From the NCBI RefSeq assembly GCF_964194155.1, contig NC_135897.1, positions 76,322,001 to 76,386,000 of the forward strand: a DNA stretch of 64,000 nt. Reading direction: 5' to 3'. A program made the position numbers and the translations under genes. How positions within the stretch are numbered: position 1 is the stretch's first letter; each line of letters begins with the position of its first letter. This document shows positions 2,025 through 55,824 of the stretch, in pieces. The DNA is from Cetorhinus maximus (taxonomy: Eukaryota). Under the pieces are notes generated by a model. The model saw nothing but the letters and a program-made list of their open reading frames with translations, did no database searches and was not told the DNA's origin.

Positions 2025-3235
2025 ACATAAAAACATAGAAAATGTACGGCACAGAAGGAAGCCGTTTGGCCCATCATGTTTGTGTTGGCCAGTTTCAAGG
2101 TATCCAGCCTAATCCCGCTTTCCAGCTCTTGCACTTCTCAGGATCCTAGAATTTATTGTGTATTCTCATTTCTTGTTTGCCTTCCCAAATGTGTTATCTC
2201 ACACTTCTCCAGATTGGATTCCATTTGCCACTTTTCTGTCCATCTGGCCAATCCATTCATAACTTCTTGCAATCTACAGCTTTCTTCCTCATTATCTGCC
2301 ACACAACACATTTTTGTATCTCATAGACTCGTAGAGCCACAAACTCATAGACTCATAGACATTTACAGCACGGAAGGAGGCCAATTGGCCCATCGTTTCA
2401 GCACTGGTCAACAAAGATCTGACTATACTAATCCTATTTTCCAGCACTTGGCCCATAGCCCTGAAGGCTATGGCAATGCAAGTAAAGATCTAAATACTTC
2501 TTAAATGTAACAAGAATTTCTGACCACCCTTTCAGGCAGTGAGTTCCAGACTCCCACCACCCTCTGGGTGAAAAAAATGTCTCCTCAACTCCCCTCTTAG
2601 CCTTCTACCCCTTACTTTAAAGCTATGCCCCTTGGTTATTGACCCCTCTACTAATGGAAAAAGTGCCTTCCTATCCACTCTATCTATATCCCTCATAATC
2701 TTATACATCTCTATCAAGTCCCCTCTCAGCCTTTGCTGCACCAAGGAAAACATCCCCAGCCTACCCAATCTTTCCTCATAGCTCAGACCCTCCAGCCCAG
2801 GCACATCCTTGTAAATCTCCTCTCCACCCTCTCAAGTGCAATCACATCTTTCCTATAATGTGGTGACCAGAACTGCAAGCAGTACCTCCAGTTGTGGCCT
2901 AACCAGCATCTGCAAACTTCTTTAACCACACCCCCAACATTTAAGTCTAAATAGACAATGAAAAGTATGGCACCTTATTCTGATGTTGGTGGATCTCCAC
3001 TGGAAGCAACCTTCCAGTTATAAAAATATTGGTCAATCAATACCCTTTGCTTCCTATCAATGAACCAATTTTGGTTTCAGTTTGATACTTCCCCTTAGAT
3101 TTCACGGACTCTTATTTTTCTGACCAGTCAACCACGTGGGACCTTGTTAAAAGCCTTGCTAAAATCTATGTAGATTACATCAAATGGGCTACCTTCATCA
3201 GCCCTCTTTGTTACCTCCTCAAAAAATGCAATGTT
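2025..3235 (-). mobile_element. Nested CR1 LINE 3' fragments in the last DNER intron
   Basis: MPGLEGLSYEERLGRLGMFSLVQQRLRGDLIEMYKIM (CR1 ORF2 C-terminus) and two CR1-type tails; RT sequence resumes after 2905. Confidence 0.88.
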
Positions 3236-3543
3236 ACCAATGATTGCACCACTGTTTGGGGAAATCATAATTGTGGTTCTAGTCTGTCCCAGTGCTATCA
3301 ATCTCAATATAATGTGCGTAAATTATAGTAAAAACAAATATTTTTCATTTTTACTATAATTTACTTAAATTATGTTGAGATTGATAGCACTGGGACTTTG
3401 AATATTTTTCATTTTTAGTGTGGAGTGTTATGACGGCCTTAAGATTTAGCCCTTGAACTCGCAACGATTTCTCTTCTGTACTTGTTCTTATTACAGTATG
3501 TGTCCTCACATTCTCTCTCTCTGGCCTCTTTAATTTTTTTAAG

Positions 3544-3655
3544 GTTTGGCAAGAAGGCCAGGCCAGCAATGTACGATGCAACCCCTGTGGCCTATGAAGA
3601 TTACAGTCCTGATGATAAACCGCTGGTCACTCTCATTAAAACAAAAGATTTGTAA
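3544..3655 (+). CDS. DNER: DNER terminal coding exon
   Basis: Polypyrimidine tract and AAG acceptor (3541-3543); phase 2 continues (R)FGKKARPAMYDATPVAYEDYSPDDKPLVTLIKTKDL, stop TAA 3653-3655; matches the DNER C-terminus. Confidence 0.97.
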
Positions 3656-5850
3656 AGCATAGCTCATCTCTTATGGGTACAAAAAAGGGAAGTATAAGTA
3701 CAAACACAAACACACACACAAAACACAAACACACACGCTAAATATTTTGAAGACAATGTATTGCTAGAAGATCTAAGAGATTTGCTTTTTGAGCTAAATT
3801 GTCATTTTCCAGTAGTTAATCATACGGACCAATTTTATGCAGTATATTTCAATTGAAAAATGTTTGTGTTTCTAAACTACTCGCTATGTTAATGAAATAT
3901 ATTTTCAATGTTGCTGTTGACCTTAAAAGATATCTATCTTATTAGGTTGTGAACTATTTACAGAAACTATAAGAGCTCTAAGCTATAGAACCTGGGTGTT
4001 ATATTTATGTTTCCTTGTCTCTGTGAAATAATAATGCACCATGGCTTGTAGGAAATTAGACTTGTTTTTGATAGCTCATGTCTTTAGCTCATTTTATTGG
4101 GAAAGTGGGTGGCACGGAGACATGCAACACTGTCCTTTCACCTCTGTCACTTGAGAATGAGATCTGCCCAAAATACTGGGATTAATTTCTCCCCTGTGTG
4201 AACACTCAAATTGTCCAATTGTTGAAAATACAAGGACTGCCTGCAATTTGTCACAAGGTTGGCAGTCTCATTAGAAAGGCCAGAAGAATGGCCAATTGGG
4301 AAACGAAGGTGTTGCAGTGCTCCACCCGATACCAAACAGAAACTGCACCAGATCCAAAAATCGATCCACAAATAGTGGAAAAATGTTCTGTTTCCCGTTT
4401 AATCAGCTTTTTGATGGGCACAGCACCTCTTGCTTAACAGTTCCCTACTGATGTAATCAACACCCACTGTAAAGTTATTTTTGAAAAGAAAAGCAAGAAA
4501 ACAAATATCAGTTCAAATTAATACCATTCTTTGAAACTATTTTATTGTCAAAAGGAGTCGTGATACTGAAATACCCCTTTAAATTATAATTCTCAAAATG
4601 AACTAGGATGTGTTGTGCTCAATATTTAAATGTAAAAGTAATTTCTACATGCTATGGTACTTGTTTTAGTGAATATACCTTAAAGAGGGAGCCTCATCAT
4701 TAATACCTTTTTCAAAAAATCAGTTATGAATATTCGTTATCATTAAATGTTTATTACTGTGGAGATTTTCAAAAAAAGATCTCCCTTAAACAATGGTTCA
4801 TTAAAGGAAGAATTAACTCATACAAGTTAGAAGACCCTAATGATAATAAAGGAGCTGATTACCTTGCACACTAGTGAAACGGAAGTAATCTGAGTTAATG
4901 GCTACCACACTACCGGTATTAATTCAGCTCCTACCATTTTATCAACATCAGCATCTTTTCCCAGACACTTGTCCCGCCCATTAACCAATATGTCGTGGTT
5001 GAGCAAAAATAGTCCCCCAAAGATCAACATACACAGACTAGGATAAACAGAAGGATATTAAATGGGCACATTGTGTTACTGGGGAGCTTTTAGTTGGAGT
5101 AACTGACAAAGCCATGATCAACCTGCTGCTAACCTGCCAGGAAAGCAGATGTTATCTTTTTCCAAAGTAAACCTTTGTGATATGCGTTACACATTATTTC
5201 CATAAATTAGATCTAATTCCATGAATCAGAATTCAAAAGCCCAGAGCACCAGGTACCACAACAACCTAAACGTCTAACTTCCACATTTTGCTCCCTTATT
5301 ACAAATCAGGTAAATTGCCTGCAGAATAATTTTAATGTTAATGGAAGCTATTATAACTTATTTTTAAAAAAAATACAGGCAAGAATGTTGAGAGACTCGC
5401 TCTTTAGATGCCTAGTTTTTAGTAATGCATATTGTAATGACACTTGAAGAGGTCTATGAAATGTGATACTGCTGCGCATTCCTATTAAAGGTGCAATGAA
5501 GTTTAAGGAATGATATTGCACTCCTCAAGCAAAATTTTGTTGTTATGTGCAAGTTGAACATTTTAGTATTTGCTTCAGTTGTTACTGCTAGGAACATGAT
5601 CTTGTACTATCCGTGTGTTTTTTGTCATTTTTTGCTCTTCTGTAACTGGTATCTTTTTTTGTGTGGGGTGGTGGGGAAGGGTTGTCCATCAAAGTTTTGA
5701 AATGTAATGTGTGTCTTGGATTTCCAAAGTGCTCATTGGTCAGCCCCTATTTGTGACAGAAGTAGACGATTCAATTTGCTCCATTAAATTCTTGCATTGA
5801 AGCTGTGTGTTTAATTAAACAATAAAACTCTTACACAAAACAAAGCATCC
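3656..5850 (+). other. DNER: Probable DNER 3' UTR (~2.2 kb)
   Basis: AT-rich, largely free of young repeats, runs from the stop codon to an AATAAA followed by a GU/U-rich tract; 3' end is inferred. Confidence 0.55.
5821..5826 (+). terminator. Candidate polyadenylation signal of DNER
   Basis: AATAAA with downstream ggtctttgtggtctc...ttgtgttttt GU-rich element; an alternative AATAAA lies at 4845-4850. Confidence 0.55.
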
Positions 5851-6444
5851 TAGTAGCAATGCAAAGGTCTTTGTGGTCTCAGTTCATTGTGTTTTTAATT
5901 AATTGGACTGGATGATAAATCTTGCACACTTCCAGCACAAAACCTTATGCAGCTGAAAGCACGTTCTGAGGAATTACACTCACACTCAGCCCATGATTTT
6001 TCATCCATCAATTTTAATAGGCAGGGAAATCTGGTCCACGTGGGCATGATGTTCCAATATCCCAGTGGATGCATCTCCATGCAATCAGGGAAATTTATCA
6101 TCAGATGTTAATTTTTACAGTTTCACTTCTAGAATTAGGCCATATCGATTAGCCTTCTTGATGCTTACAAGGATTCTAATTGAAATTGTGGTTGATCTTA
6201 ATTGATCCGAACAGGGAGACTGAAACCACTTTAGCTGCAAATCTTGCTCCTGTCAGGGGTCATTTGTACACCCAGCATAAAGTAGCAATTTAAATGGCAG
6301 CTGAACCCTTTATGAAATCCTAATTAAAGAGTTTTAAGAACGTACCCAGTTTGTTTGAGGTTGGAGAAAGTGACAGAGATAAATGGCCTAAGTTTAATTT
6401 TATGACAGTGTTCCCTTTGAGTGGAATCTTCTGCCCTTAGAATT

Positions 6445-7062
6445 CTGTGGAATTTTTAGCTGAGCGAGCGGGCGTGCGCTTGACCTGTTCGAGCAAAAAA
6501 ATGAAGTGCGATATTTTGGTCGGCGGGCGCGCAGGGGAAGTCGGCAGCACGCCTGCCGAGAATGAACAAGCCCATTAAGGACATTAAAGTCCCAACTGAA
6601 TTAAAAATTTCCGCTGCCCGTCCAACCTTACGGTTGGCAGACAGGCGAATCAGCCAGGCGGCCTTTGGATTTTTTATGAAACCTCATCCACAGGCGGGAT
6701 GAGGTTTCTAACAGGAATTAAAAATACAATTAAAATGATCAGATCTCATTTATAACATGTCCCTGCTCATGGGACAGAGTCACAAGAGGGGACATGTTTT
6801 GAACATTTTTAAATTCTTTATTTGTGTTTTTGAAAATCTTCAGCTCCCTGAGGCAGCTCTGTGCCTTCAGGCAGCTTTCAGTACGCTCGCCCTCCTCCCG
6901 CCCCCACCCAGGCAGCGCTCAGCATTGCAGCGCCCGATTCACGCTGGCTGGCCGTTAATTGGCCAGCCAGCGTGAAATCGAGGTCGGGGCCCGATCGCGG
7001 GCAGTGGTCGGCTTTGTAACCATCCCCGGGCCCGCCCGCCCAACGAGGTAAAAATCCTGCAC
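6445..7062 (+). mobile_element. Harbinger-type MITE (~620-710 bp family)
   Basis: Similar along its length to 15586-16293 and, in reverse, to 13189-13870; AAAATCCTGC terminus; CpG-rich. Confidence 0.75.
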
Positions 7063-8368: not shown

Positions 8369-8980
8369 ACTTCCATTTTAACCCTGCTATCACCCCTTCT
8401 GCCAAGCGATGGGAGATAAACTCTCTCCCAGTTAGCCTTTCATAGAGTAGAAATACCAGGTCAGCAATTTCAATTATAACCCTACAGAGCAGCCTTCTGT
8501 TATGTAGACAATGAAGATATCATGGGTTGCAGAACAGCTGACTGTTACGGACAGAAGAGAGAGTGAAACTCTACCTGTGTGTATGTAAGCAGAGGTGTTT
8601 TTGAATTATTTTTAAACTAGGCTATGGCGTGCTTTCCCAAAGCCTTGGATCATATGATCTAATTTAAAAATAACTTCCATTTTAACCCTGCTATCACCCC
8701 TTCTGCCAAGCGATGGGAGATAAACTCTCTCCCAGTTAGCCTTTCATAGAGTAGAAATACCAGGTCAGCAATTTCAATTATAACCCTACAGAGCAGCCTT
8801 CTGTTATGTAGACAATGAAGATATCATGGGTTGCAGAACAGCTGACTGTTACGGACAGAAGAGAGAGTGAAACTCTACCTGTGTGTATGTAAGCAGAGGT
8901 GTTTTTGAATTATTTTTAAACTAGGCTATGGCGTGCTTTCCCAAAGCCTTGGATCATATGATCTAATTTAAAAATAACTT
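8369..8980. repeat. 304-bp tandem duplication, apparently exact
   Basis: 8369-8672 repeats at 8673-8976, with ACTT microhomology at 8369, 8673 and 8977. Confidence 0.95.
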
Positions 8981-19660: not shown

Positions 19661-20587
19661 CTGGAGTGTCTAGCCCAAGAATTGTCAGGATTTTATGTCC
19701 TGTTGCTATCCTTGGTCCAGGCCCTACAATGGCAAGTTTAGGACTGGCAAAAGGAGGAGGAAAATACATTTTGCTGCAAACATCTCAGGATGTAGCTGCA
19801 TGTCAGGCCTCAGTCACTGGGATCTTCAGAAGATCTGAATTCTATCTAAAGGTTCTGGAGAGTGGCGTAATTTTGAAAATTTACCCTGCTTGGCAGCCAT
19901 TGACTAATCCCTGGTCCCCCATGGATTCTCTGATTAGGTAGGCCCGAAATGAATGTGTTGTAGGGCATCTCTGCTGTGGTGTGCTGAAATCCAGGAAATG
20001 AGGAGGAAGACTCATGTAATTTACAGGATGTCAGTCAAGTTTTCCCTCTCGAGGAAAGCCTCGGAAATTCCAGGGCAACCTAAAAGGAATGGAATTAAAG
20101 CAGAAAATGCTGGAAAATCTCAGCAGGTCTGGCAGCATCTGTGGAGAGAGAAACAGAGTTAACGTTTCGAGTCCCTATGATTCTTCTAATTCTTCCAGCA
20201 TTTCCTGTTTTTATTTCAGATTTCCAGCATCTGCAGTATTTTGCTTTTATCTTGTAAAAGGAAACCTGAACTGCTGGGTTTTTTTCCCCTGACCTTTGCC
20301 AGTGTTTCTGGGGAGAAGGGTCACAAAAGAAATCAAACTTCCGCATTTCGGCTGGGCTATACTAGTTGTACCACGTCCTGCTGATTGACTCTTATTCGAA
20401 TGGTTGTGAATTGGCACTGGGTCACTGATCTGCATTGAGAACAAATGCTTCAAAAGGTACTAATGCTCAGAAAACCAAAATGACAGTAAAACCTATCTCA
20501 GCACTGTTCCAACATGTGACACGAGGAGACTCCCATATCAGCCTGGGACAAATACAAAGTTTATAAGATTGTTATGTTTTGAGACTA

Positions 20588-30956: not shown

Positions 30957-31064
30957 GGTGGGTAGGTGGATGAGGTAGGTCAGGCAAGAAAGGTTAACTC
31001 TGTTTATCTCTCCACAGATGCTGCCAGACCTGCTGCGTTTTCCCAACACCTTCTGTTTTCACTA

Positions 31065-34760: not shown

Positions 34761-35283
34761 TGCCTGGAATGTCCCAAAGTTAATCATGTCTTGAGGTTAT
34801 TGTCAGATAAGGATATGTGTTAATATCAGAAGTTAGTTGGAACAATGGAGTGGCAGAAAACCGATGAATAGACTGGCCAGTAATCACATTAAATATCTGG
34901 AATGTCCAAGACACCTCCTCTTCCTTTGTAATATGAGGCGGATACATCAGGTTAAATTGATTAACAGTTAAATCATCAAGATGGCCATTATGTCGAGGTT
35001 TGGTGAGAAAGAATCTCATTTCAATATGCATCCTGGGCATGTGACTCACATCAAAGAGAAAAGTCCTTCAATGAGATCTAGAAATTCTTTTAGTGGCAGA
35101 TGGATAAAGAGGGATACATAAGAATGGGTAGCAGCCATCATCTAGTTAGAGCTCACAGGACAGCCAGGGATCCATCACTTAAAAAGATGAAAGCAAAATA
35201 CTACGGATGCTGGAAATCTGAAACAAAAACAAAAATAGCTGGAAAAACTCAGCAGGTCTGACAGCATCTGCGGAGAGGAATAC

Positions 35284-35323
35284 AGTTAACGTTTCAAGTT
35301 CGTATAACTCTTCATCAGAACTA
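35284..35323 (-). ncRNA. Minimal type I hammerhead ribozyme motif (family A), mirror copy
   Basis: AGUU CUGAUGA A GAGUU auacg AACUU GAAA C GUU AACU on the minus strand. Confidence 0.7.
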
Positions 35324-35382
35324 AGAAATATATAAATGAGGTGGAATATAAGCTTATATTCCACCTCATTTCTATATTTCTT

Positions 35383-35421
35383 AGTTCTGATGAAGAGTCA
35401 TACGGACTCGAAACGTTAACT
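35383..35421 (+). ncRNA. Minimal type I hammerhead ribozyme motif (family A)
   Basis: AGUU CUGAUGA A GAGUC auacg GACUC GAAA C GUU AACU: complete core, 5-bp stem II, stem I AGUU/AACU, palindromic ACGU stem III. Confidence 0.75.
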
Positions 35422-36342
35422 TCAAAAGATAAGATTGATCGATTTAGCTCTGCAAGAAACCAGGTTGTATGAGTCTAGTTATAAGAGTTACTGTGCTGTT
35501 GGTGCAGGAGTAAGAAACAATACCTTCGTACCTGAACCACAAGGAACCATTTAGCTGAGTTTAAAGAGATTTCTTTGCACATCAGTCATCTAACAATGAC
35601 TTTAGAAAGGGAATAATATTTTTGCATGATTTCTTCAAAGTCATAGGATAAATGAGTGAGCAAGCAACTGCACTAATAACAAAGGTGCAATTGTTAATGA
35701 ATCAATTGGCATCAGCCAATCTACCTTTTCCATAGATAAATTTGACAAGAACTCAGAGAATGAAAGAGTGTAACATTTACCAGAAATGGAAAAGTCTTCA
35801 CAGAATTGGGTGTGGGGAATGGACTAGCCTTCACAGAGCAACAATTTTTAGTTTTTTAATTAAAATACTGTCCATATACCTCAGAAATATAGCTACCAGA
35901 AGACAGTACGTTCTTATAAATATGTTGTTCTGTGCTACAGAAAGCTACAATTACATATTTCATTTTTTTCTAAATTTTTGTGGTTGATATTTATGCATAC
36001 AGATATATAAAATATTTCTGCAGGACACAAGGTGCCAGCAAATGTTTTAGCCACCTCCCTTGCAATGTTAAACTGTTGCCATTCTCTGAGTAAAACATTC
36101 CCATCCTAGGCTTTCCTTTTATACTTTTATAAAGGATCCATAGGTTTTCATTTGTATACACCACCATTTTAAGCTGATTTAACATTTCTCAACAGCAAAT
36201 GTTTAATTTTGGATTATCTACAGTCAGTTATTTGGTTGCTCTTTTATTAGAAGTTCAAAGACATCCTTTCTCTTTATGAAGATTTTGGACCAATAGATGT
36301 AGTTCTTTCATAATGAAGTGTGGTATTTGCTTTTGTAACTTC

Positions 36343-40933: not shown

Positions 40934-42184
40934 TCACTGCATGTCGTCATCATCCTCCATAAATCTGGCAGCTATGAGGGCCTCCCGAGTGCACCTGCCT
41001 CATCTAGCCAGTGCGAAATCCTCATCCCCATCATCGCCACCACCAAGAACCCTCTCACCCTCATCCCCATCAGCATCCTCCTCATCGGAGGAGACGTGCA
41101 GCTCATCCATCTCCTCCTCAGCCAGCTCCTCTCCCCATTGCAGTGCCAGGTTGTAAAGGGAGCAGCAAACGACGATAATGCTTGACACCCTCTGTGGACT
41201 GTATTGCAGGGCTCCACCAGACCGGTCCAGGCACTGGAACTGTATCTTCAGCATCCCAATGGTCTGCTCTACCAAGTTGTGAGCTGCTGCATGAGGCTCA
41301 TTATAGCATCGTTCTGCTGCAGTCTGAGGCTGCCGCACGAGTGTCATCAGCCACAGTCTCTGCGGGGAGCCCTTGCCCCCAAGGAGCCAACCCTGCAGCC
41401 TCTGTGGACCCTGGAAGACTGCAGGGATCTGCGAGTGACTCAGGGTGTAGGTGTCATGCACACTCCCTGGAAACCATGCACATACCTGCAGGATGTGTTT
41501 CTGGTGGTTGCATACCAGCTGCACGTTCAGTGAGTTGAAGCCCTTGCAGTTGGCGAATTCCATCGAGTGTAGCAACAGAGGCCTGAGCACCACACGAGTG
41601 CAGTCAATCGCACCCTGAACCTGTGGGAATCCCAAGATCAGGGTGAATACAATGGCCCTTGCATCCTGGCTGCCCTGGTCCTGGGTGAAATGCACAAAGT
41701 TGTGTGCCAGGGAGAAGATGGCATCCGTGACCTCATGGATGCATTTGTGGGTGGCGGATTGTGAAATCCCACAGAGGTCACCTGTGGAGCCCTGAAAGGA
41801 GCCACTGACATAGAAATTGAGCGTCATGGTCACTTTCACAGCCACTGGCAGTGGATGCCCTCCATGACCCCTTGGCACCAACTACTGCAGTAAGTGGCAG
41901 ATGTGAGCCACCAGGTCTATAGACATGCACAGCTGTCAGCGACACTGGTTCTCAGTCATCTGCAGGAATGGCAGGCGGCGTTTATAGACCCTGGGTGTCG
42001 CTAGGCACTGACCAGCCACGGCTCACTGTCACTCCTGGGCAGCGTGTGCAGGAGCCCCTGCTGCCCCTTCTTCATGAGGTTGCTGCTCCTGCCTTTGCAC
42101 GGCCAGGTGCCTCAGACACTCTCTCCTCCATCTTCTACAGTCTCTGTAGGCCATCAGGCATACAGCTAGGTCACCAGGATTCAT
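40934..42184 (-). pseudogene. Harbinger (HARBI1-like, DDE_Tnp_4) transposase, inactivated
   Basis: ORF 41000-41881 has GAIDCT, SLNVQLVC, FPGSVHD, LLGGKGSP (catalytic LGDxGY Asp lost) and VEQTIGMLK motifs; N-terminal part MNPGDLAV... from 42184 is interrupted by stops; acidic tail ends EDDDDMQ* at 40934. Confidence 0.92.
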
Positions 42185-48220: not shown

Positions 48221-48381
48221 TACAGTACATACTCAACCAGTGAATGGAAATAGTTTTTAATTGATTTCTGTTTAATCAATGTAATATTTCACCCAATCAA
48301 TAACATTGACAGACCAGTTCTTTCATCTAATTATGATTTTTATCCCATCTAAAACTCTTGAGCATTGATGAAAAAAGAGAC

Positions 48382-48417
48382 ATGTCAAAGCTTTTCACCT
48401 TGCAATCATCAGGACAC
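48382..48417 (-). ncRNA. Hammerhead motif (family B), mirror copy
   Basis: GUGUC CUGAUGA UU gcaag GU GAAA AGCU UU GACAU on minus strand; stem II degenerate. Confidence 0.5.
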
Positions 48418-48493
48418 CTGTAAGAATATCAATATAAGGGGCAAGACAACAATTGTAAATTGTTGTCTTACCCTTATATAGGTAATCTTATGA

Positions 48494-48529
48494 GTGTCCT
48501 GATGAGTGCAAGATGAAAAGCTTTGACAT
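48494..48529 (+). ncRNA. Minimal type I hammerhead ribozyme motif (family B)
   Basis: GUGUC CUGAUGA GU gcaag AU GAAA AGCU UU GACAU: stem I GUGUC/GACAU, palindromic AAGCUU stem III, very short stem II. Confidence 0.6.
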
Positions 48530-48786
48530 GTGGCTTTTTTCAGCAACACTCAAGTTCTGTACCACCAAAAAACTACTCCTGAGTTTGCTACCCCACGGAG
48601 TGATGGCGAGTTTTGAGGTTTGACAATCACTTTTGAGATATAAGGTATTACAGACTTGTGAAAATGTTGTATTGAAATGATCATTTTATTGCAATACTAA
48701 TTTTTCCTCCTATTAAATATAAATGCAATTCTGCTATGTTGGAAATACTCAGCAGGTCTGGCAGCATCTGTGGAGAGAGAAACAAG

Positions 48787-48823
48787 AGCTAATGTTTCAG
48801 GTCAACGACCTTTCATCAGAACT
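48787..48823 (-). ncRNA. Hammerhead ribozyme motif (family A variant)
   Basis: AGUU CUGAUGA A AGGUC guu GACCU GAAA CAUU AGCU; different stem II sequence that still pairs fully. Confidence 0.6.
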
Positions 48824-50863: not shown

Positions 50864-53800
50864 CAACTAAACAGCAATACCACCACTAGTCTGATTACAA
50901 ATGAACAGCAATACCACTCTGTTAGTCTGGTTACAAATAAACAGCAATACCACTCTGTTAGTCTCGTTACAAATAAACAGCAATACCACTCCACTAGTCT
51001 GGTTACAAATAAACAGCAATTCCACTCCACTAGTCTGATTACAAATAAACAGCAATACCACTCCACTAGTCTGGTTACAAACAAACAGCAATACCACTCC
51101 ATTAATCTGGTTACAAATAAACAGCAATTCCACTCCACTAGTCCGATTACAAATAAACAGCAATACCACTCCACTAGTCTGGTTACAAATAAACAGCAAT
51201 ACCACTCCACTAGTCTGGTTACAAATAAACAGCGATACCACACCACTAGTCTGATTACAAATAAACAGCAATTCCATTCTGTTAGTCTGATTACAAATGA
51301 ACAGCAATACCACTCCACTAGTCTGATTACAAAGAAATATCAATACTACTACACTCATCTGATTACTAATGAACCGCAATACCATTCTGTTAGTCTGATT
51401 ACAAATGAATAGCAATACCACTCCATTAGTCTGATTACAAATAAACAGCAATACCACTCCACTAGTCTGATTACAAATAAACAGTAATACCACTCTGTTA
51501 GTCTGATTACAAATAAACAGCAATACCACTCCACTAGTCTGATTACAAATAAACAGCAATACCACTCCACTAGTCTGATTACAAATAAACAGCAATACCA
51601 CTCCACTAGTCTGATTACAAATAAACAGCAATACCACTCCATTGGTCTGATCACAAACAAACAGCAATACCACTCCACTGGTCTGATTACAAATTAACAG
51701 CAATACCACTCCACTAGTCTGATTACAAATAAACAACAATACTACGCCACTGGTCTGATTACAAAATAAACAGAAATACCACTCCACTAGCCTGATTACA
51801 AAAAAACCAACAATACCACTCCATTAGGCTGATTACAAATAAACCGAAATACCACTCCACTAGTCTGATTACAAATTAACAGCAATACCACTCTGTTAGT
51901 CTGATTACAAATAAACAGAAATACCACTCCACTAGTCTGGTTACAAATAAACAGCAATACCACTCCACTAGTCTGGTTACAAATAAACAGCAATACCACT
52001 CCACTAGTCTGGTTACAAATAAACAGCGATACCACACCACTAGACTGATTACAAATAAACAGCGATACCACTCCACTAGTCTGGTTACAAATAAACAGCA
52101 ATACCACTCCACTAGTCTGATTACAAATAAACAGCAATACCATTCTGTTAGTCTGATTACAAATGCACAGCAATACCACTCCTCTAGTCTGATTACAAAG
52201 AAACATCAATACTACTACACTCATCTGATTACTAATGAACCGCAATACCATTCTGTTAGTCTGATTACAAATGAATAGCAATACCACTCCGTTAGTCTGA
52301 TTGCAAATAAACAGCAATACCACTCCACTAGTCTGGTTACAAATAAACAGTAATACCATTCTGTTAGTCTGATTACAAATAAACGGTAATACCACTCTGT
52401 TAGTCTGATTACAAATAAACAGCAATACCACTCCACTAGTCTGGTTACAAATAAACAGAAATACCACTCCACTAGTCTGGTTACAAATAAACAGCAATAC
52501 CACTCCACTAGTCTGGTTACAAATAAACAGCAGTACCACTCCACTAGTCTGGTTACAAATAAACAGCGATACCACACCACTAGACTGATTGCAAATAAAC
52601 AGCGATACCACTCCACTAGTCTGGTTACAAATAAACAGCAATACCACTCCACTAGTCTGATTACAAATAAACAGCAATACCATTCTGTTAGTCTGATTAC
52701 AAATGCACAGCAATACCACTCCACTAGTCTGATTACAAAGAAACATCAATACTACTACACTCATCTGATTACTAATGAACCGCAATACCATTCTGTTAGT
52801 CTGATTACAAATGAATAGCAATACCACTCCGTTAGTCTGATTACAAATAAACAGCAATACCACTCCACTAGTCTGATTACAAATAAACAGTAATACCATT
52901 CTGTTAGTCTGATTACAAATAAACGGTAATACCACTCTGTTAGTCTGATTACAAATAAACAGCAATACCACTCCACTAGTCTGATTACAAATAAACAGCA
53001 ATACCACTCCATTGGTATGATCACAAACAAACAGCAATACCACTCCACTGGTCTGATTACAAATTAACAGCAATACCACTCCACTAGTCTTATTACAAAT
53101 AAACAACAATACCATGCCACTGGTCTGATTACAAATAAACAGAAATACCACTCCACTAGCCTGATTACAAAAAACCAACAATACCACTCCGTTAGGCTGA
53201 TTACAAATAAACCGAAATACCACTCCACTAGTCTGGTTACAAATTAACAGCAATACCACTCTTGTTAGTCTGATTACAAATAAACAGAAATACCACGCCA
53301 CTAGTCTGATTACAAATAAACAAAAATACCACTCCACTAGTCTGATTACAAATAAACAGCAATACCACTCCGTTAGTCTGATTACAAATAAACAGCAATA
53401 CCACTCCACTAGCCTGGTTACAAATTAACAGCAATACCATTCTGTTAGTCTGATTACAAATAAACAGAAATACCATGCCACTAGTCTGATTACAAATAAA
53501 CAGCAATACCACTCCATTAGTTTGATAACAAATAAACCAACAATACCACTTCGTACAAATAAACAGAAATACCACGCCACTGGTCTGATTACAAATAAAC
53601 AGAAATACCACTCCACTAGTCTGATTACAAAAAAACCAACAATACCACTTCGTTAGGCTGGTTACAAATAAACCGAAATACCACTCCACTAGTCTGATTA
53701 CAAATAAACAGCAATACCACTCCGTTAGTCTGATTACAAATAAACAGCAATTCCACTCCACTAGCCTGATTACAAATAAACAGCAATACCACTCCACTAG

Positions 53801-54087
53801 TCTGATTACAAATAAACAGCAATACCACTCCACTAGCCTGATTACAAATAAACAGCAATACCACTCCACTAGCCTGATTACAAATAAACAGCAATACCAC
53901 TCCACTAGCCTGATTACAAATAAACAGCAATACCACTCCGTTAGTCTGATTACAAATAAACAGCAATACCACTCCACTAGTCTGATTACAAATAAACAGC
54001 AATACCGCTCCACTAGTTTGATTACAAATAAACAGAAATACCACTCCACTAGTCTGATTACAAATAAACAGCAATACTACTCCATTA
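50864..54087. repeat. 36-bp minisatellite, about 89 units, in PID1 intron 1
   Basis: Consensus ACAAATAAACAGCAATACCACTCCACTAGTCTGATT; 540-bp (15-unit) higher-order repeat visible at 51901 versus 52441. Confidence 0.97.
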
Positions 54088-55788: not shown

Positions 55789-55824
55789 AGTTAATGTTTC
55801 AGGTCGATAATCTTTCATCAGAAC
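55789..55824 (-). ncRNA. Degenerate hammerhead motif (family A variant)
   Basis: GUU CUGAUGA A AGAUU auc GACCU GAAA CAUU AAC; stem II has a mismatch. Confidence 0.45.

Follow-up and report, generated by a model that had tools for sequence, protein, structure and literature searches.

In L1 twin priming, both ends of the target site serve as primers on the element RNA, and microhomology joining takes place inside the TSD, the two arms being derived from separate parts of the RNA. For Penelope-like elements (PLEs), insertions with an inverted pLTR, a junction palindrome, a one-sided tail and a TSD are already known (PMC3846280, PMC8557442, PMC2377424), and self-priming has been proposed as the source of their head-to-head palindromic junctions (PMC3846280). 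Pairs of minimal hammerheads lying on opposite strands, 100-700 bp apart, have also been noted (PMC4209133). In the in vitro system established for an anole PLE (Poseidon PAc), both target strands are cut and extended, with synthesis starting at two sites on either side of the tail, and hammerhead mutants leave the insertion unaffected (PMC11167929). The palindrome examined here is a further instance of this already described insertion layout.

The window analysed, i.e., the whole stretch of 64,000 nucleotides, carries this palindrome at 35284-35421. As the first-pass annotation had claimed, the palindrome is real and each of its arms contains a hammerhead motif. The arms (35284-35352 and 35353-35421, 69 nt each) are 94% complementary, have no spacer and meet between AAG and CTT; together they form the top short-loop palindrome of the window, with a score of 53 compared to 30 for the runner-up. 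Each arm reads CUGAUGA-A-stem II (5 bp)-GAAA-C-GUU, closed by a 4-bp stem I (AGUU/AACU), on the strand directed away from the palindrome centre. Both arms conform to the minimal type I (PLE type) pattern, namely CUGANGA, GAAA and NUH with helix II, a short helix I and a palindromic helix III; the latter, which had been expected on general grounds, was found to be ACGU. The arms differ at four position pairs (35296/35409, 35300/35405, 35306/35399 and 35333/35372). Three of these fall within stem II and retain pairing, as had been stated before, and all four turned out to be deviations of the left arm from the family norm, the right arm being 100% identical to the full-length genomic copy L202.

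This palindrome is almost certainly the core of one 5'-truncated PLE insertion, consisting of the 3' end of the element and an inverted, shorter copy of it. The whole insertion measures about 235 bp and is ORF-less. It reaches about 100 bp to the left of the reported palindrome, to about 35184-35189, an extension that the first-pass annotation missed. Its layout is that of an element 3' end with its tail, placed head-to-head with an inverted tail-less copy within a probable 12-bp TSD. With the predicted cut after GUU taken as the origin of the arm coordinates (+/-), the long arm (35184-35354, minus strand) corresponds to about -68 to +104 of the PLE 3' pLTR and shows 94% identity to L202 and up to 96% identity to the monomer copies L010-L030. 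It includes the tail, present on this side only and about 35 bp long (+67 to +104; 35184-35221, minus strand), which is marked by pile-ups of loose ends at 35190 and 35221/35222. Motif parsing placed the minimal type I hammerhead of this arm at 35284-35322 (minus strand), with three private transitions in stem II and a predicted cut between 35288 and 35287. The short arm (35351-35421, plus strand; about -68 to +4) is the inverted tail-less copy, whose 71 nt are those fully identical to L202. Its minimal type I hammerhead was parsed at 35383-35421 (plus strand), with stem I at 35383-86/35418-21, the core at 35387-93, stem II at 35395-99/35405-09, GAAA at 35410-13 and GUU at 35415-17. The two arms have in common a 4-bp self-complementary overlap, AGCT, at the head-to-head junction (35351-35354), beyond which monomers run into other sequence.

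The left copy of the probable TSD (35177-35188, plus strand) matches the right copy (35419-35430, plus strand) with one mismatch. The first three bases of the right copy overlap the arm end, and through this microhomology the end of the short arm is ambiguous between +1 and +4; the last five bases of the left copy also fit the end of the element tail. The TSD score at this site is 9.5, and 5 of 400 control pairs scored at least 9. Within 35190-35221 (minus strand), a pyrimidine run with CAG behind it, an arrangement resembling a splice acceptor, coincides with the +67 end, and the tail begins directly after it.

The Penelope origin suggested for the palindrome was borne out by a coding parent linked to the hammerhead terminus. 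The repeat, which presumably resembles one of cartilaginous fishes, is abundant: a 17-nt tag from the hammerhead region has at least 14,605 copies in the 4.0-Gb genome, and a search with 35180-35430 returned 4,051 candidates, 40 of which were scored. Most of the top copies match up to the palindrome centre and then continue into a common sequence, which is followed by ORF fragments encoding a C-x4-C-x2-C linker and a domain of GIY-YIG type. Linkage to RT and GIY-YIG reading frames had been recommended as a check, and L202 holds both motif sets in one 831-aa stop-free frame (DKG, YIDD, a C-x4-C-x2-C-like linker and GIY-YIG motifs), with Pfam matches to RVT_1 (E 4e-4) and GIY-YIG (E 6e-3) that are both below the curated cut-offs. 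This frame stops 432 nt before the predicted cut, and its first 50 or so amino acids derive from the inverted arm. The C-x4-C-x2-C signature also occurs in the translations of L010, L024, L025 and L029. Judged by these motifs, the parent is an endonuclease-bearing (EN+) PLE, and its linker would make it Neptune-like, as Neptune elements are described as having a CX2-5CxxC zinc finger that links RT to EN, a feature shared with Nematis (PMC8557442). Two side observations concern individual loci. The near full-length parent in L202 (1420-4747) has a tail on each arm and no TSD was seen there, which makes it an exception to the one-tail pattern described below. In L199, broken LTR-retrotransposon frames (gag, protease, RT and integrase-like; about 2985-6815) lie beside a truncated PLE copy.

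The insertion in the window is old and shared, since both of its junctions are crossed by contigs of a second species with flanks that have diverged by about 3% (16/486 and 17/604 letters). An empty site was sought in a related species and none was found, the insertion being shared. The window copy has been decaying since before the split of the two species; it is likely without function, and its two hammerheads are likely passengers. The first-pass annotation had envisaged a transcript with the ribozyme and its own antisense, whose hairpin would compete with the ribozyme fold. A functional switch of this kind is not supported, as nothing indicating selection or transcription was found at 35284-35421; contigs of two runs that may be RNA matched repeat portions and left the unique flanks uncovered, which speaks neither for nor against transcription. 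The competition between hairpin and ribozyme does hold as a prediction: on both strands, the read-through RNA is predicted to fold into one long hairpin with a stem II pair probability of 0.000, and the short arm alone is predicted to form stems I and II. The Rfam search that had been put forward as a check gave zero hammerhead matches at E<=1; its matches were miRNA hairpins only, all below the gathering score, which is due to the long hairpin of the palindrome.

The covariation claimed for stem II likewise did not stand. The C-G to U-A double change was present in only 1 of the 81 copies having its first half, and that single copy is the window itself; the seemingly compensatory change is private decay. 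Between subfamilies, stem II has one common one-sided change (80 of 241 copies) and few two-sided types (3, 2 and 1 copies, n=241), a pattern that would support the fold at the level of the family and not selection on the window copy. Across the copies compared, conservation is high at the core nucleotides C3, U4, G5, G8, A9 and A13-A14 but not at core position 6, whose variants are given below. As a separate observation, stem II of a PLE end at 48819 (minus strand) reads AGGTC/GACCT, differing from the main family on both sides of the stem.

How the inverted end was made can be addressed with the many related insertions in the genome. We compiled 133 unique inverted pairs, with cuts at most 600 nt apart, both arms extending at least 20 nt past the cut, and three duplicates dropped; the pairs were chosen by patterns that fix the junction range, and the window copy lies outside the set, its +4 short arm being below the 20-nt anchor. 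Exactly one arm with a tail (at least +90) was found in 131 of the 133 pairs and two tails in 0/133. The short arm ended at +55 to +82 in 117 pairs, and arm ends peaked at +100 and at +65-70. A TSD was detected in 116 pairs, with a median length of 14 bp, compared with 5/400 in the control. The complete lack of two-tail pairs argues against an independent choice of start sites, because such a choice predicts many of them. Some tail-less arms are long, that of L203 extending up to 2.7 kb into the ORF, and this indicates that both arms copy the 3' region. At the junctions, an overlap of at least 2 nt was present in 63% of the 49 insert-free cases vs 30% of simulated blunt joins. Templated junction inserts were significant in 6 of 20 rows, one of which was duplicated, so this signal is weak.

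Taken together, the observations are probably best explained by a truncated PLE stub that was made by two-ended priming and the joining of same-sense cDNAs; the mechanism taken by itself, namely two-ended priming followed by end joining of two same-sense cDNAs, is held with less assurance, as somewhat favoured. According to this mechanism, the GIY-YIG endonuclease would make staggered nicks about 14 bp apart, and both nicked target ends would prime reverse transcription on the element RNA. The first primer would begin at the tail end (+100) and the second internally, usually at +67 and, in the window copy, at +4 with 3 nt of microhomology. The 3' ends of the cDNAs would then be joined by 4-bp annealing at the self-complementary AGCT, followed by fill-in. 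If true, coupled two-ended priming would account at once for three features, namely the inversion, the tail on one side and the TSD. Several points count against this reading. The symmetric junction and the atypical +4 end of the window copy cannot decide, and for this copy the mechanism is taken over from the family; the TSD in the window is short and mismatched, and no empty site came to light; the 133 pairs were selected by pattern; the Pfam matches of the parent lie below the cut-offs; and L202 has tails on both arms with no visible TSD. Later deletions at palindrome centres could reshape junctions, and one RNA template and two are indistinguishable here. No proposal of twin priming for PLE inversions was found in the accessible part of the literature, and the idea may already have been published.

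The main alternative accepts the same insertion and ascribes the mirror arm to self-priming (fold-back) of a cDNA or an antisense RNA, with later deletions reshaping the centres. This is a published proposal for such junctions (PMC3846280), and it explains the identical arms and the single tail per insertion without a second primer. We nevertheless regard it as unlikely. In 46 pairs it is the tail-less arm that extends further 5', compared with 24 for the tail arm and 61 symmetric pairs (p=0.012). The 24 of 70 asymmetric pairs run in the direction that fold-back predicts, whereas the other 46 run opposite and argue against it, because no such pair should arise if the tail strand had folded back on itself; among insert-free junctions, the opposite direction prevails in 26 of 36. 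In addition, judging from the sequence, fold-back to an AGCT centre with no loop would have to rely on a stem of 1 bp and a loop of 2 nt, and the sharp +67 end fits a second RT start site.

A second possibility is that the short arm was copied from hammerhead-cleaved RNA, its end being 1-4 nt from the predicted cut. The ambiguous arm end (+1 to +4), the end at +4 of about 9-10 of 38 pattern matches and the end of L066 at +3 are compatible with it. An excess at the ribozyme cut site was looked for among arm ends and junctions, and none was found. An exact break at the cut was seen in 4 of 14 matches, two of which precede an apparent other repeat, compared with one of 8 matches at the -2 control; the background comprises at least 14,605 copies. 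The cut was the centre of 3 of the 50 junctions listed, and the neighbouring palindromes contributed 4 and 3 (counted by eye). Moreover, RNA that had been cleaved could not template bases beyond the cut. Together, these results leave copying from cleaved RNA very improbable. Three copies (L116, L118 and G000:C1:8091904) are interrupted precisely at the predicted cut, where similar GC-containing sequence follows; this is probably another repeat inserted later at TTAA. With regard to the other end of the arms, 17 of 45 unselected arms (L081-L110 and L204-L217), some of which may come from sister families with different upstream sequence, start at -38 to -29, a position at stem I of the hammerhead that follows a TATA-like stretch by about 30 nt. 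This clustering suggests a putative transcription start at stem I. The window copy begins upstream of this cluster.

The first-pass annotation had instead proposed a non-autonomous Penelope-derived family; a related reading is that of a MITE- or retrozyme-like palindromic element that spreads as a unit and whose hairpin regulates the ribozyme. A 24-nt pattern of the centre indeed occurs at 45 genomic sites (reversed control, 0), most of which have similar ends and TSDs, and the predicted hairpin would prevent the ribozyme from folding. However, 44 of these 45 same-centre palindromes carry the letters of other subfamilies, so that the window is the only one of the 45 in its own subfamily; it is also nearer to monomers (up to 96%) than to the other palindromes (82-93%). 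The same-centre palindromes are spread over several subfamilies with both arms matching, and a tandem array is absent at the site. Inverted arms 30-60 nt apart were found at 266 sites and junctions inside the hammerhead at 104 sites; among the 50 listed of each, junctions are highly varied, and only about 4 of the first 50 of the 266 are centred on AGCT (by eye). In a set of 75 pairs, drawn before the final removal of three duplicates, the arms disagreed at subfamily-diagnostic sites in 7% within pairs vs 46% in random pairs, and 69 minor alleles were common to both arms vs 10 expected. Since arms match their own monomer subfamily and junctions vary by site, each palindrome arose independently from a single source element, AGCT being a preferred joint. 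These data contradict a palindromic family, and spread of the palindrome as a unit is accordingly a highly doubtful explanation. An assembly artefact, or a palindrome formed by DNA repair after insertion, can be practically dismissed: although none of the listed contigs covers the entire palindrome, both junctions are present in same-species runs and in the second species, the arms differ at four positions, and the TSD encloses both arms in a layout common to hundreds of sites.

The family also bears on the role of the ribozyme, through position 6 of the core. Of 267 parsed copies, a non-random set, 161 have U at this position, about 65 have A and about 24 have C. Exact copies of the A6U core outnumber those of the A6 core by about 5:1 (3,134 vs 602), and U is the base found in the most amplified subfamily; CC or AA at core positions 6-7 mark other subfamilies. 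A natural A6C hammerhead variant is described as weakly active, and A6U is absent from the part of that text covered here (PMC3088659). If the element spread best with the A6U core, PLE transposition in vivo might not require cleavage by the ribozyme. The combined proposal, that coupled priming at the tail end and about 35 nt inside it, with end joining of the cDNAs, builds the inverted ends of PLEs, and that the element spread best with A6U, cleavage being perhaps dispensable, stands in our judgement at an even balance.

Other features were observed in the window. A second, different inverted repeat at 48357-48554, with 84-nt arms, a 30-nt spacer and outward CTGATGA/GAAA hammerhead-like cores, probably represents a stub from a different PLE family. 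Related PLE ends, in decayed form, lie at 20097-20253, 30988-31059, 48740-48823 and about 55790-55821. The window also contains an AT-rich, MITE-like hairpin of about 110 bp with 50-bp arms and sub-threshold miRNA matches (3286-3396), a perfect 304-bp tandem duplication (8369-8980), and a minisatellite with about 90 copies of a 36-bp unit (50864-54084). A DDE_Tnp_4 (Harbinger-type) transposase frame is present at 41000-41881 (minus strand), in a GC-rich block located at about 38-44 kb. A scan of 13 of the window's 22 long ORFs matched only the DDE transposase and thus identified no host gene.

The locus itself, an old and decaying stub of a kind that occurs hundreds of times, is of little weight. 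The counts across the family bear on how PLEs make inverted ends and on the role of their hammerhead. The one-tail rule, the direction of the junctions and the success of A6U yield predictions that can be tested in the existing in vitro PLE system. For annotation, the locus is a warning that palindromes of this kind mimic miRNA hairpins and apparently covarying ribozymes.

Compared with L1 twin priming, the PLE arms here cover the same part of the RNA, and the outcome is a duplication. Non-LTR retrozymes were considered as an identity for the locus and rejected, as the site is without a tandem array and its arms are inverted. The type I hammerhead and an origin from PLE pLTRs are common to both; retrozymes, as described (bioRxiv 10.64898/2026.07.22.740005), are direct tandem repeats, whereas the window holds an inverted pair from a family still attached to coding parents. 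With the hammerheads of metazoan PLE pLTRs (PMC4209133), those studied here have in common the extra nucleotide after A9, the short helix I, the palindromic 15.2-16.2 and the loop-less helix III; they differ from that description in a stem II of 5 bp, GUU as the cut triplet (a sister subfamily has GUC) and A6U as the commonest core of the genome. The insertions of Pen2a_Av in Adineta (PMC3846280; scheme in PMC8557442, Fig. 2) share the head-to-head inverted 5'-truncated copy, the palindromic junction overlap and the TSD, and Pen2a_Av-type insertions have, as here, a tail of 30-40 bp at one end only (PMC3846280). In contrast to Pen2a_Av, the arms in the window are very short and the whole insertion, at about 235 bp, is ORF-less; the TSDs here are about 14 bp, compared with 8-10 bp in the rotifer (PMC3846280). 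Finally, Poseidon PAc of the anole (PMC11167929), although of a different clade and described, in the text covered, with no explanation of inverted copies, shares the two RT start sites bracketing the tail and the cutting and extension of both strands, to which the genomic counts presented here would add one start site per arm.
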